Of a stretch of 29,620 bases of DNA, positions 8,978 to 14,140 are shown in pieces. The position numbers were made by a program, and so were the translations under genes. Source of the stretch: Methanotrichaceae archaeon. Lineage in GTDB: Archaea > Halobacteriota > Methanosarcinia > Methanotrichales > Methanotrichaceae. The notes under the pieces were generated by a model, which saw only the letters and a list, made by a program, of their open reading frames with translations, did no database searches and was not told where the DNA came from. The stretch covers positions 1-29,620 of the forward strand of contig CAWDLW010000019.1 in the NCBI GenBank assembly GCA_963803145.1, in the 5' to 3' direction. Position 1 is the stretch's first letter; every line of letters begins with the position of its first letter.

Positions 8978-10227
8978 TCACAGCTTAACGTACCCCGCAA
9001 CATCTCCAAGCTCTTCTTGTATCCTGAGAAGCTGGTTGTACTTGGCTGTCCTCTCACTTCGAGCAGGTGCACCAGTCTTTAGCAGTTCTGTACCCAGCGC
9101 CACAGCTACATCGGCCAGCGCAGAATCCTCGGTCTCAGCGGACCTGTGGCTTGCCATAATCTTGAATCCGGCCCTGAAAGCCATTCTGGCTGTATCGAAA
9201 GCCTCCGAGACAGACCCGATCTGGTTGAGCTTGAGCAACAGGGCATTTGTTGCACAAATCTCTATGCCTTTCTTCAGCCTCGCAGGATTGGTAACGTAAA
9301 TATCGTCACCCACAATGATTGTGTTTGGCAGCCTGGCAGTGAGCTTGGCGAAATCATCGTAAGCCTCCTCCTCAAATGGATCTTCCAGCAATATAATGGG
9401 GTAGGTGGCTACCAGATCGGCATAGTAATCTATTAGCTCATCGGGCAAAAGGCGGTTCCCATCGACGGAATAACCGCCATCTAAATAGAAGCTTGATGCA
9501 GCCGAATCCAGGCCTATCTTGATCTCTTTGGCGTAACCAGCAGCATCGAGGGCACTCATTATGGCATCCAAGGCATCTCTTGTCTTTGAAAGCGGAGGTG
9601 CATAGCCACCTTCAAAGCCAACGTTAGTGGCACCGACACCATATCTGCCCTGAAGTATCTTGCCTAGAGCATGATAGGTTTCTACAGCCATTCTAGACCC
9701 TCGCTGAAGCTCTTCGCACCTACCGGCTCAATCATGAACTCCTGGATTGAAAGCTCATTTCCGGCGTGTTTGCCGCCATTGAGGACGTTGAAGGATGGGA
9801 CAGGGAGCTCTGTTAGTGTTCACGCCACCAAGATATCGATAGAGCGGTATGCCCAGAGAAGAGGCAGCAGCCTTAGCTATACCAAGAGATACTCCCAGAA
9901 TGGCATTTGCTCCCAGGTTTGATTTGTTTGGAGTGCCATCCATCTCGATCATCAGCTCATCGATTTCACATTGAGCTATGACATCCTTTCCGATTATCTT
10001 TGGTGCTATGACCTCATTGACGTTCTTGACTGCCTTTAGCACACCCTTACCATCGTATCTGTCTCCTCCATCACGCAGTTCCAGGGCTTCATGAACGCCT
10101 GTAGAAGCTCCGCTGGGAACAGCAGCTCTGCCGAATCCAAAGCCTGTCCAAACATCGACCTCAACAGTCGGATTTCCTCGCGAATCCAGTATCTCCTGGC
10201 TCGGATCTTCTCTATTTCCAAAGACAT
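8978..10227 (-). pseudogene. eno: Enolase, split by at least three frameshifts (probably sequencing errors)
   Basis: Fragments give [98 protein letters not shown] before ATG 10227. Confidence 0.92.
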
Positions 10228-10235
10228 GATTTAAT

Positions 10236-10421
10236 TCACCTCGAAATATTGCGTTTACTATGGCTACGCAAGATCATTACCACACAAAAGGGCTTACTGG
10301 TTATACAGATGCTCTTAAGACCTGCAGAGCTCTGAAAAAGTGGTTCTAATGAAAAAAGCTGATTATCGTTTGATATCTTCATCAACGTCTTAATGATCAT
10401 TCGGATGCTGGAGTTTGTCAA
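10236..10421 (-). CDS. Putative 61-aa leader ORF between fluoride riboswitch 1 and enolase
   Basis: TTG start 7 nt after a GGGAGG SD; its TGA stop lies inside the enolase SD (GAGGTGA). No family recognised. Confidence 0.4.
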
Positions 10422-10446
10422 TATTATTCCTCCCTACCATCTAACA

Positions 10447-10510
10447 GGTAGGGGTCATCAGCCGCATGGCAGTTCAGGCACTTGGCCTAGGCGGACCCCA
10501 TCGCCCAAAA
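10447..10510 (-). ncRNA. Fluoride riboswitch (crcB motif) 1
   Basis: Minus strand reads GGCGAUGGGGUCCGCC-UAGGCCAAGUGCCUG-AACUGCC-AUGC-GGCUGAUGACCCCUAC. P1 GGCG/CGCC, conserved GAUG, pseudoknot GGGGU/ACCCC, P2 GCC/GGC, and a UGAUGAnnnCUAC tail. TATA-like element (AGAAACTCTTATTA on minus) about 25 nt upstream. Confidence 0.92.
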
Positions 10511-10591
10511 TCTAGTAGATAGGGTATTTTGCGTAATAAGAGTTTCTATAGCGTTTAGTAGAGCGAAGGATTAATCATTGCTAACATCTAA

Positions 10592-11052
10592 TTGGGCCTG
10601 TTGGAGGGGCTTTATGGTGGAGACGCTAAGACGGTTTGCATTTTCTGTGATATTGTAGAAGGGAAGGCTCCTTGTTACAAGGTCTATGAAGATAATCTTT
10701 CTTTGGCATACTTGATATCAACCCTTTCTCAAGAGGGACATTGTTTAGTCATCCCCAAGAGACATGTGCCCTGGTGGCATGAGCTTACTGATGAAGAGAA
10801 TGCAGCCTGTTTAGAGTGGCGAAGAGTGTGGCCGAAAAGATGATGAAAGCTCTAGATCCGGATTTTGTCTGTATGTATGCCCGCGGCAGAAGGATACCTC
10901 ATACCATATATTCTTGGTACCAACATACAGGGCGATCCTCTAGATAGGTTCTTCAATGCCCTTGAGGCTTTCAGGAATCTCCAGTCGAACTGGCATCGAT
11001 GAGAGAGCGGAGATCTATGGAGGAGGTCGCTGATCTCATAAAGAAGGCATGA
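10592..11052 (+). pseudogene. HIT-family nucleotide hydrolase, frameshifted
   Basis: CIFCDIVEGKAPCYKVYED, GHCLVIPKRHV; downstream frames give RGRRIPHTHIFLVPT and MEEVADLIKKA with stop at 11050-11052. Confidence 0.85.
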
Positions 11053-11126: not shown

Positions 11127-11147
11127 CGTCTATGTAATTTATTAGAC

Positions 11148-11197
11148 TGGTGGTGATGGAGTTCACCCTTAACCGCCTTTAGGCTGATGACTCCTGA
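11148..11197 (+). ncRNA. Fluoride riboswitch (crcB motif) 2
   Basis: GGUGAUGGAGUUCACC-CUU-AACCGCC-UUUA-GGCUGAUGACUCCUG. P1 GGUGA/UCACC, pseudoknot GGAGU/ACUCC, P2 GCC/GGC, conserved AACCGC and UGAUGA. About 15 nt upstream of ATG 11213. Confidence 0.93.
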
Positions 11198-11212
11198 GTC
11201 AAGGGATACATC

Positions 11213-12062
11213 ATGCGAAATATACCAGCCCTTATACAGTACATCAGCGAAAGGCGGATTATAGATAATAACGGCAGCGGTTACTCTTTTGTGAGAGAGC
11301 TATCTCCCAATATAAAGGATACATTCTTCGCAATGAGCTGCTTGAAGATACTCAATGCAGATTCGCGCGATGATGAGATAGTTCGCTTTCTTTCCGGTTA
11401 TGATGACTTCGATTTCAATGGAGCCTACTATGCCATGAAGTGTCTGATGCTGGCTGGTGAGATGTACAATATCAGAAAGGATTGCTTAAATGGCTCTATG
11501 AAGGGAAAAAGCAGGCTAGACCGTGTGCTGTACCATCTACACCTCTCATTCGTTACTCAAATACGAAGTGTATGGAGCATATGGTTCGAGCATCTTTCAT
11601 CTCCGTTAAGCGCCCTACTGAAGCGAATAGAGTTAAGTGAGGCGAATCTAAGTTCAAGTCTGGCGAATTCTGTACTGATACTTCTATCAAATAACCGTCT
11701 AGATATTATGACTGAATATATGGCTCTGGAGATTCTGAAGGCCATAAGTATGAGATGCAGTTCTTACTGCTCTCTTCGACTACGATTGAAGAAGTTAGAG
11801 CGTTTTATCACGCTGCACTACTCGCATAGGATACGTAGCTAGTCCTACGAGCAACTCAGTAACCCTTGATAGTACCTATGCAGGCCATGAGATAGCACGG
11901 TATATCGGCATCCCTGACCCACTTGGAATCAATAGCTTCATAGATTCCTTGCAGAACGAAAACGGAGGGTTCAGGCAAGCGCCTTTTGGAGGTATTTCTA
12001 CACTTGAATCATGCTATCTGGCCATGAGCATTATCTCTGATATCTCTTGCGAGGGAAAATGA
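11213..12062 (+). pseudogene. Prenyltransferase/squalene-cyclase (alpha/alpha toroid) repeat protein, COG1689-like, frameshifted
   Basis: Repeat units SGYSF...PNIKDTFFAMSCLKIL and FIDSLQNENGGFRQAPFGGISTLESCYLA (second frame, stop 12060-12062). Confidence 0.7.
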
Positions 12063-12515
12063 TTGCCTGCAATAAGAGCGAGGATACATATCTCGACAAG
12101 GTCTTGCAATCAGCTTGCATCATAGCAGGCTGGAGAAGAGGGTCGAGATGGTCTATATCCTGGGAGAACTACGTGATCCTAGTGCCTGGATGTGCTCAAG
12201 GCTATAATGGCTGAAGATAATCCGTATTTGGTTTCGGAGGCCGTTAAGGCTATAGGAAAGATTGGAGGGGCTGATGCCTTCGATCAGCTTCGAATCATGA
12301 TGAATCATCTCTCTTTTATGGTGAGGGGCGAGGTTGCCATGGCTCTGAGAAGAATGGATAATCCTGAGAGAGATAAACTATTAAACCAACTTCTAAACGA
12401 CAGTAGCCCCTATGCAAGAAAATGCGCCAATGATGTTTTGAACAATGGTTATACTAATTTGAAATGGATGGAGACCCAGAAACTGAGGTTCTGCTATGAG
12501 AAGCGATGTTACTAA
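12059..12515 (+). pseudogene. HEAT-repeat (PBS-lyase-like) protein, 5' part frameshifted
   Basis: ATGA overlap with the previous stop. Repeats RRRVEMVYILGELRDP, LVSEAVKAIGKIG, VRGEVAMALRRM, LLNDSSPYARKCA. Confidence 0.75.
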
Positions 12516-14140
12516 AGTGGGTAAGGAGCGAGCACCTCATCGTGCTCTCTTCAAGGCAACAGGCATCACAGATGAGGAGATGAATAGTCTTTCATAGGAA
12601 TTGCCAACTCCTCTAACGACTTCATCGCTGGACATATACACTTGGATAAGATAGCTCAGGCTGTGAAGGCTGGCATCAGGATGGCTGGAGGCGTTCCCTT
12701 CGAGTTCCAGACCATCGGTATATGTGACGGCATAGCCATGGGGCACACTGGAATGAAGTTCTCTTTGCCTAGCCGCGAGCTGATAGAAGATTCCATTGAG
12801 CTTATGGTTGAGGCCCATCAGCTCGATGGTCTGGTGCTTATACCAACATGCGATAAAATAGTTCCTGGCCATCTCATGGCAGCAGGAAGGCTAGATCTGC
12901 CGACAATCGTAGTTACAGGAGGGCCTATGCTCCCTGGATACGGCTGCGACCAAGAGCTGGACCTGATAAACGTCTTCGAGGGCTGGCAGAAGGGCGGCGA
13001 TACTCTGGCTATCCTTGAGGAAACTGCCTGTCCAGGTGCGGGTTCATGTGCGGGTCTTTTCACTGCAAATACTATGGCCTGCATGACCGAGGCTCTAGGT
13101 TTGAGCCTTCCGGGATGCGCTACTATACATGCGGTAGATGCCAGGAAGATACGTATCGCAAAAAAATCGGGGATGAAAATAGTAGAGTTGATACAAAAGG
13201 GGCTGACTGCCAGGAAGATTATCAGCCAGAAATCCATAGAGAATGCAGTCGTGTAGATATGGCCATTGGAGGCTCTACCAATACAGTTCTTCATCTCCCA
13301 GCAATTGCAGCTGAGTTCGGGATGGATTTGGATCTTGATACGTTTGATAGAATCAGCCGTGAAACTCCCCACCTGGTCAATCTGCGGCCAGGTGGTCCCT
13401 ATCATCTGATCGATTTAGATCATGCAGGAGGTATACCTGCTGTAATGAAAAGGCTCAAGTCCAGTCTGACCCTCGATGCCCTAACTGTTACCGGCAGGAC
13501 TATGGGAGAGGAGATTGCCGAATTTAATCCTATCAATCCCAAAGCCTATGATGAAGTTATAGCAACTTTGGAGTCACCTGTCCGCGCAGAGGGTGGCATT
13601 GCCATACTGCACGGAAGCCTGGCTCCAGAAGGGTCTGTCGTCAAGCAAATTGCTGTGTCCAAGTCCATGCTTGTCCATAAAGGTCCAGCTGTGGTTTATA
13701 ACTCCGAAGAAGAGTCAATGGCCGGGATAATGAACGGAGAGGTCAATGCAGGGAATGTCGTAGTCATCCGATATGAAGGTCCGAAGGGCGGCCCAGGAAT
13801 GAGAGAGATGCTGGCTCCGACATCGGCCATTGCAGGAGTGGGATTGAGCGAATCTGTCGCCCTAGTAACTGATGGCAGGTTCAGCGGAGGCACACGGGGG
13901 CCGTGCATAGGGCATGTCTCTCCAGAGGCTGCTGTAGGAGGACCAATAGGGCTAGTAGAGGACGGGGATACAATCCAAGTGGATATTCCATCGAGGAGAG
14001 TTGACCTCCTAGTAGATGAGAAGGAGCTTGCTAGACGTCGGAAGGTATGGAGCATGCCTGAGCATAAGGTAAAGAGCGGCATCCTGGAGCGGTATAGAAG
14101 ATCGGTAACATCAGCGAGCAAAGGTGGAGTTCTGAGGTAA
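12496..14140 (+). pseudogene. ilvD: Dihydroxy-acid dehydratase, two frameshifts (~12590, ~13250)
   Basis: [87 protein letters not shown]. Confidence 0.93.

Follow-up and report, generated by a model that had tools for sequence, protein, structure and literature searches.

The window analysed here (the whole 29,620-nt stretch, positions 1-29,620 of contig CAWDLW010000019.1, assembly GCA_963803145.1, from a Methanotrichaceae archaeon) carries two divergent fluoride riboswitches, and its locus is one version of an island that is patchily distributed among the Methanotrichaceae. The reading preferred here, which is reasonably probable, is that the two aptamers switch on the translation of spare Mg-dependent enzymes and of a protein with the predicted fold of a prenyltransferase beta subunit (the toroid protein), with neither of the exporters Fluc and CLC-F detected. 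The island probably serves in fluoride defence without using the known pumps. The source genome (G000; the labels G0xx, Lxxx and Cxx denote genomes, loci and contigs within a genome) is 4.13 Mb in size and 99.3% complete, with 6.8% contamination.

Two fluoride riboswitches and the genes they lead

An Rfam scan of the window gives exactly two matches, both divergent fluoride (RF01734) aptamers, which are also the sole RF01734 matches in the source genome. Both score above the gathering cut-off of 34 bits and match the full model (positions 1-64) with P1, P3 and the pseudoknot intact. An earlier reading of the letters alone (the original prediction) had described two such aptamers about 640 bp apart, with covarying stems and a TATA-like box each. 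The spacing is 629 nt by Rfam ends and ~647 nt between P1 starts, the pseudoknot strands (GGGGU/ACCCC and GGAGU/ACUCC) and P1 stems (GGCG/CGCC and GGUGA/UCACC) were found as described, and an element resembling a B recognition element (BRE) and TATA box lies ~25 nt upstream of each aptamer, with a similar element recognizable by eye before 38 printed family switches. Start codons follow 9 nt (switch B) and ~20 nt (switch A) downstream of the aptamers. A scan for sigma-70 promoters and terminators, whose model does not cover archaea, returned chance-level counts. By sequence, both aptamers are genuine fluoride riboswitches, for which fluoride binding and a change in expression are predicted. 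The features are as follows (ORF, open reading frame; SD, Shine-Dalgarno sequence).

10442..10514, minus: fluoride riboswitch aptamer A, long form with an extra stem (RF01734, 49 bits, E 7e-11); leads the leader ORF, enolase and cofE
11143..11203, plus: fluoride riboswitch aptamer B, short form (RF01734, 55.6 bits, E 5e-13); 9 nt before the toroid start codon
10533..10547, minus: BRE-TATA-like promoter element of switch A, from sequence; same element at the enolase switches of four relatives
11112..11124, plus: BRE-TATA-like promoter element of switch B, from sequence; GAA..CTTTAAT-like element before 16 printed toroid switches
10429..10453, minus: predicted OFF hairpin in which the 3' pseudoknot strand CCCUACC pairs with GGUAGGG and hides the GGGAGG ribosome-binding site (-14.2 kcal/mol, z -3.1)
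10236..10421, minus: 61-codon leader ORF, TTG start, ending in the enolase SD; frame open in 5/5 genomes (42-66 codons; 0.014 by shuffle)
8978..10227, minus: enolase, second copy, three single-base indels as assembled (Pfam; tree; intact paralogue on C18)
8183..8930, minus: cofE (F420-0:glutamate ligase), extra copy, one indel, start approximate (Pfam; intact paralogue on C8)
10605..11052, plus: HIT-family hydrolase, ~7 single-base indels, start approximate (Pfam HIT, E 7e-8)
11213..12062, plus: toroid (prenyltransferase-beta-fold) gene, five single-base deletions as assembled; the constant switch target
12059..12515, plus: small HEAT-repeat protein, at least two indels, overlapping the toroid stop (Pfam HEAT_2, E 5e-10; alignment)
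12496..14140, plus: ilvD (dihydroxy-acid dehydratase), second copy, at least two indels, overlapping the HEAT gene (intact paralogue on C25)

The switch A unit on the minus strand thus comprises the leader ORF, enolase and cofE, and the switch B unit the overlapping toroid, HEAT and ilvD genes. The gene for cofE also follows the island enolase in G004, G014 and G023. The aptamers do flank a HIT gene, as originally claimed, which lies between both switches and downstream of neither; its orientation excludes it as a switch target.

In its 3' pseudoknot strand, a switch carries the complement of the ribosome-binding site or start codon of its own gene, and the matching partners change together with gene class: CACCUAC pairs with GUAGGUG before the antiporter, major facilitator superfamily (MFS) and glnA genes, CCCUACC with GGUAGGG before enolase, and CUCCU with AGGAG/GGGG before the toroid gene. 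The enolase OFF hairpin of the window is found likewise in relatives. It is likely that the island switches act on translation, as is presumed for the Thermococcus switch in the available part of PMC8241225, and that the leader ORF couples switch A to enolase translation. The protein encoded by the leader ORF (window 10236-10421, minus; L032, L035, L038 and L040) is poorly conserved, with one non-standard start, and its frame in the window may be shifted by a 1-nt deletion. A separate observation (alignment A6) is that the pseudoknot is mismatched in most of the switches that lead antiporter, MFS and glnA genes, while the toroid switches and the window pair are perfect; these mismatches may set different fluoride thresholds.

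The island in the family, its constant gene and its enzymes

A switch above the cut-off is present in 19 of the 101 Methanotrichaceae genomes sampled (G000 and 100 others) and in 21 at E <= 0.001. Gene content was read from 20 regions fetched from 18 of the switch-bearing relatives. A separate switch leads nearly every unit, and the switches are usually arranged as divergent pairs. The toroid gene occurs in 17 of these loci, followed by a cation/proton antiporter (CPA) gene (12), HIT (11), Usp (10), a formate/nitrite transporter (FNT) gene (9), enolase (5), glnA (5), HEAT (4) and ilvD (2); MFS, ppsA, DUF6062 and cofE are further members, with glnA and ppsA added as switch-led genes in the relatives. 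The FNT genes are adjacent to the islands and are not switch-led. G004 has eight switches in 17 kb (L032-L033; G004:C13:9527-26310), which lead enolase, ppsA, MFS, toroid (twice), antiporter (one truncated) and glnA. Some relatives show decay, with truncated ilvD, glnA and antiporter genes and an insertion sequence in enolase. The original prediction had pointed to enolase and IlvD as Mg2+-dependent dehydratases; the constant gene is that of the toroid protein and not these, enolase being found in six and ilvD in three of the fetched islands of the 19 switch-bearing genomes.

The toroid gene is present in 18 of the 19 switch-bearing family genomes, and it immediately follows a switch in 17/17 family loci and in 20/20 Thermococcus loci (gene in 41/41 genomes). 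For these counts and those at other Halobacteriota loci, switches were called with a purpose-made nhmmer profile built on Rfam matches. A switch immediately precedes the gene in 15 of 33 other Halobacteriota loci and lies within 2.2 kb in 21 (33 of 42 loci fetched), and the Rfam model itself detects one at 11/20 and 6/11 distant toroid loci. Among the genes of the island, the one constantly found in first position is the toroid gene. The gene after it in the 20 Thermococcus loci is DUF6062 in 14 and Fluc in three. The HEAT protein was rejected as an obligatory partner, being encoded by the next gene in only 5/17 and 9/33 loci.

Several other associations were observed at these and similar loci. 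DUF6062 genes are repeatedly found next to the antiporter, toroid genes and fluoride switches in archaeal and metagenome loci (L321-L340; L032:12722-13537; L033:3040-3855; L259, L260, L273, L275 and L289). Metagenome loci of the antiporter also contain toroid genes. Dynamin-like GTPase genes stand behind their own fluoride switch in five other methanogen loci (L146, L147, L159, L162 and L167), which often also hold toroid, enolase or Nudix genes; the window has none. In the Thermofilales (L094, L098, L099 and L102), no Rfam fluoride switch accompanies the toroid gene; the gene upstream of it in L098 encodes a ChrB_N-domain protein, and L094 and L102 have similar genes in that place.

The predicted structure of the toroid protein (mean predicted local distance difference test score 88.7) has the alpha/alpha toroid fold of prenyltransferase beta subunits, the best match being such a subunit (Z 18.2, root-mean-square deviation 3.3, 242 residues aligned); class II terpene cyclase folds match with Z 12 only. 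DxDD is the acid motif of class II terpene cyclases, and Asp, Cys and His are the zinc ligands of prenyltransferases. The consensus of 50 toroid sequences lacks DxDD, and no Cys or His column is conserved in 35 or more of the 50; the conserved polar residues are T37, E221, Q249, R257, E267 and R14. Foldseek returned no match at E <= 0.001, a sequence search of the PDB only the beta subunit of geranylgeranyltransferase II (GGTase-II; E 0.17), and NCBIfam has no family for the protein. PF00432 is detected in distant members of the family, which has 290 representatives at E <= 0.001 (full search), is presumably COG1689 (the AF1543 family) and includes Archaeoglobus fulgidus O28729 within its alignment.

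The enzymes of the island are second copies. Enolase is single-copy in most family genomes, and island carriers have a second copy. In a tree of 36 rows (leaving out the G043 copy split by an insertion sequence and housekeeping copies that were not fetched), five island enolases group together (100/97) in a clade that lies within the housekeeping copies; islands of distant methanogens recruited other enolases. The island enolases (L211-L214 and the window) share Val46 in the GASTG loop, where 25 of 27 housekeeping copies have Thr, and have Pro316, Thr347, Phe356 and Ile358 in common. Of five genomes searched for ilvD, G000 and G014 have the island gene as a second copy, and G004 has a fragment of it. 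G000 has intact paralogues of enolase, ilvD, HIT and cofE. The original proposal that the regulon compensates for or protects Mg enzymes stands in part: the genome also has intact housekeeping versions of enolase and ilvD, which makes the island genes second copies, but the role of enolase dosage is not new, as its overproduction under a fluoride switch is already published for bacteria in the available parts of PMC11139923 and PMC5533749.

Exporters, broken frames and rival explanations

The original prediction had seen no Fluc/CrcB or CLC-F gene in the 29.6 kb and had proposed a search for fluc elsewhere in the genome. A Pfam scan of 30 ORFs or ORF pieces of the window gave no CRCB or Voltage_CLC match. 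Fluc was found neither in G000 nor in any of the 101 family genomes, with profile controls matched in 11/14, and is present in 141 of the 301 genomes of the phylum sample. CLC genes occur in 60 of the 101 family genomes. GEVTP is a signature motif of CLC-F. Together with GNNLI/GMGLI and GREGT/V (from PMC11139923), it was sought in the single CLC of G000, which has a GREGP motif and a CBS-length tail, and in 40 of the 87 family CLC matches; no CLC-F signature was found in these, and the proteins examined carry GREGP or GPEGP/T. A few family and phylum genomes (L071, L341-L343, L201, L203 and L204) encode short divergent CLC proteins (430-480 residues) with GPEGP or GPEGT in place of GREGP, which by motif are not CLC-F.

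Could an ordinary fluoride super-regulon, made of a known accessory set, leave the real work to an undetected exporter elsewhere, such as a non-canonical CLC, FNT or MFS protein? Enolase, Usp and antiporters are known switch targets, G000 has a CLC and other transporters, FNT genes adjoin nine of the relatives' islands, and 47 of the 87 CLC matches remain beyond the motif examination. However, the CLC proteins examined lack the CLC-F signatures given in the available part of PMC11139923, and no FNT gene of the islands follows a switch, that of G000 (G000:C16:45881-47943) being split by a transposase-like insertion. This alternative is regarded as somewhat doubtful.

A further candidate for export is the antiporter of the relatives, a CPA clade with an STGLTxG motif. 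It would be a third type of prokaryotic fluoride exporter, replacing Fluc and CLC-F, and G000 would use its intact, switch-less copy on C17. The clade is almost confined to fluoride switches: it is present in 12/101 family genomes, all switch-bearing, and in none of the other 82, and it directly follows a switch in 11 family loci, in 6/9 other phylum genomes and in 56 of 67 metagenome loci with 400 nt of upstream sequence (48 by the purpose-made hidden Markov model and eight more by Rfam on 15 negatives). Fluc is found in 0/10 phylum genomes carrying it, against 141/301 overall, with no CLC-F motif where checked; switch-antiporter-toroid operons (L096, L101, L152 and L155) mirror switch-toroid-Fluc operons, and the PRGE of NapA is changed to STGL. 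Nevertheless, the within-family expectation for those ten genomes is ~1.3 Fluc carriers, so that none is not significant; Fluc adjoins the antiporter in 7/80 metagenome loci, and 7/19 switch-bearing family genomes lack a full antiporter copy. In the antiporter tree, copies with a switch group together no more than in shuffles, and the copy on C17 falls in the Methanotrichaceae island clade. The protein matches PF00999 (E 1.6e-39) and lies below the TIGR00932 cut-off. In NapA, Asp, Lys and Thr-Ser are cation/proton-site residues. The antiporter has the CPA2 cation/H+ antiporter fold and cation-site residues, with the transported cation a prediction; since the Thr-Ser, second Asp and Lys of NapA are kept, pH control by cation/H+ exchange is a more probable role than the export of fluoride. 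Such antiporters are also read as serving pH homeostasis in the available part of PMC11139923. Fluoride export by this clade is accordingly considered improbable.

As assembled, single-base indels break cofE, enolase, HIT, toroid, HEAT and ilvD, ~20 in the 5.3-kb island and nearly all of them deletions. The locus in G000 could be a decayed relic, its frameshifts real, its genes dead and only the short aptamers still scoring. All six island genes are broken beside clean flanks (0 frameshifts in nine genes, 3,375 codons, against G019), intact paralogues exist for four of them, real decay occurs in relatives, and many indels lie outside long homopolymers. Neutral decay is expected to add many more substitutions than indels, however, and the aligned codons (~1,770) hold at most two stops, with none in four of the island genes. 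The ratio of nonsynonymous to synonymous divergence (dN/dS) is 0.04-0.23 in the island and 0.06-0.30 in the flanks, and dS to G019 (0.32 and 0.55 in the island, 0.30-0.47 in the flanks) is not raised. Because dN/dS is low, dS is not raised, the flanks are clean and the breaks are nearly all single-base deletions, the frameshifts are quite probably a local assembly error in a strain-variable island, and a relic is rather unlikely. Assembly error throughout the genome was ruled out by homologous stretches on other contigs, where single-base indels mostly number 0-1 per kb and reach 3.3 and 9.3 per kb in two short stretches (one of 646 nt). Elsewhere in the window, the contig end (1-2837) has three low-GC (30-33%) ORFs without a Pfam match at 1e-5, one of which (416 residues) has a C-terminal segment that by eye resembles a phosphoribosyltransferase type, and hemC (5966-6883) has an in-frame 21-nt deletion relative to G019.

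Several observations weigh against the preferred reading of spare enzymes and a toroid protein under translational switches. The contamination of G000 is one. The HEAT and ilvD codon alignments hold one stop each, and very recent decay would be compatible with pairwise dN/dS. The toroid switches form weak predicted hairpins (-3 to -7 kcal/mol, z -1.7 to +0.6), and folding of whole leaders does no better than that of shuffled sequence (z -1.2). The ilvD gene is confined to three related genomes, one with a fragment. Six family genomes of genus g6 and 12/33 other Halobacteriota loci have the toroid gene without a switch (by Rfam in the former). The toroid gene occurs with Fluc in 18/49 phylum genomes, often just upstream of it, which rules it out as a Fluc substitute; it therefore partners export as well as its absence. 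Some 77 of the 101 family genomes have no Fluc, no switch and no toroid gene; exporter absence is therefore a family-wide trait among the genomes searched, of which the island is not the required replacement. Finally, 11 relatives carry a switch-led cation/H+ antiporter and two a switch-led MFS gene, so that the original label of a non-efflux module was overstated. A bolder version, in which the whole methanogen family has a third route, with the toroid protein as a conserved fluoride-response core protecting Mg enzymes directly, the STGLTxG clade as a new exporter replacing Fluc in the switch-toroid cassette, or both, is tentative and judged unlikely.

Proposed mechanism and comparison with known systems

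The proposed mechanism starts from units that each bring a promoter-like element and an aptamer of their own. When fluoride is absent, the 3' pseudoknot strand would pair with the ribosome-binding site or start codon, as folding and the matching changes suggest; binding of fluoride and Mg would lock the pseudoknot and free the site, for enolase by way of the leader ORF. The extra dose from the second enzyme copies would offset inhibition by Mg-fluoride. The toroid protein could conceivably, though this is speculative, bind a ligand bearing phosphate or diphosphate through conserved Arg, Glu, Thr and Ser residues and relieve Mg-fluoride-phosphate trapping, with the HEAT protein at times acting alongside it. 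In relatives, the switch-led antiporter probably serves to offset acidification by entering HF, not to export fluoride. The frameshifts in the window would, as argued above, most probably be assembly errors confined to the island.

Two exporters are the usual explanation of fluoride resistance, and a major methane-producing family shows neither among the genomes searched, with a dense fluoride regulon in about a fifth of them. This regulon names candidates for exporter-independent tolerance, namely the antiporter clade and the toroid family, whose gene is the first to follow the switch in archaea ranging from Thermococcus to methanogens; ilvD, glnA, ppsA and cofE would mark likely fluoride-sensitive steps. 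It also offers short native translational switches for methanogen genetics. The type of regulon is known and this version is new, its open value lying in the toroid protein and the antiporter clade. COG1689 reportedly stands among the switch-linked genes of Baker 2012, and the toroid-switch link is probably already in print as a label. Among the matches listed, no paper was found on the island or on toroid function, nor one joining the switch with COG1689, prenyltransferase, DUF6062, CPA2 or Methanothrix; the available parts of PMC2864571, PMC3849170, PMC7266159 and PMC9855744 contain nothing on these island genes.

The window aptamers resemble RF01734 (crcB) riboswitches in their full-model match and intact P1, P3 and pseudoknot. 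They differ in that archaeal islands have up to eight copies, one per gene, with a predicted anti-SD platform, in that one switch is predicted to act via a leader ORF, and in the pseudoknot mismatch of many antiporter and glnA copies. The toroid protein shares its fold with the beta subunits of farnesyltransferase (FTase), GGTase-I and GGTase-II (PF00432; Z 17.4-18.2, root-mean-square deviation 3.3-3.8, 242-249 residues aligned), but has 11-13% identity, no conserved zinc Cys or His, no gene for a PPTA alpha subunit, and is archaeal and switch-controlled. The island antiporter resembles the CPA2 antiporter TtNapA (PDB 5BZ3; E 9e-18) with Thr-Ser, second Asp and Lys aligned, whereas its first Asp is Asn or Thr, PRGE is STGL, and it is tied to fluoride switches. 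According to the available part of PMC11139923, Na+/H+ antiporters are the second commonest switch-linked class and enolase overproduction is a known response.

The closest bacterial parallel given is the GI3 operon ppaC-uspA-eno-gpmA-crcB of Enterobacter cloacae FRM (PMC5533749, available part), likewise a switch-led island with an extra enolase and Usp. Its switch-led extra copies of fluoride-sensitive enzymes are matched here by the second enolase and ilvD; GI3 differs in containing crcB, in being bacterial and in having one switch and no toroid gene. In Thermococcus kodakarensis, the switch precedes TK0513 rather than crcB (TK0514) in the available part of PMC4247193, and PMC8241225 and PMC11549558 cite Speed 2018 as the validated archaeal case. 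The window is similar in that its switch precedes a non-exporter gene, and differs in that no Fluc was found in it or in the family and in having enolase, cofE, HEAT, ilvD and HIT instead. Because the first gene is the toroid gene in all 20 Thermococcus loci, TK0513 likely belongs to the toroid family, a link that could explain the published puzzle of why that switch precedes TK0513 instead of crcB.

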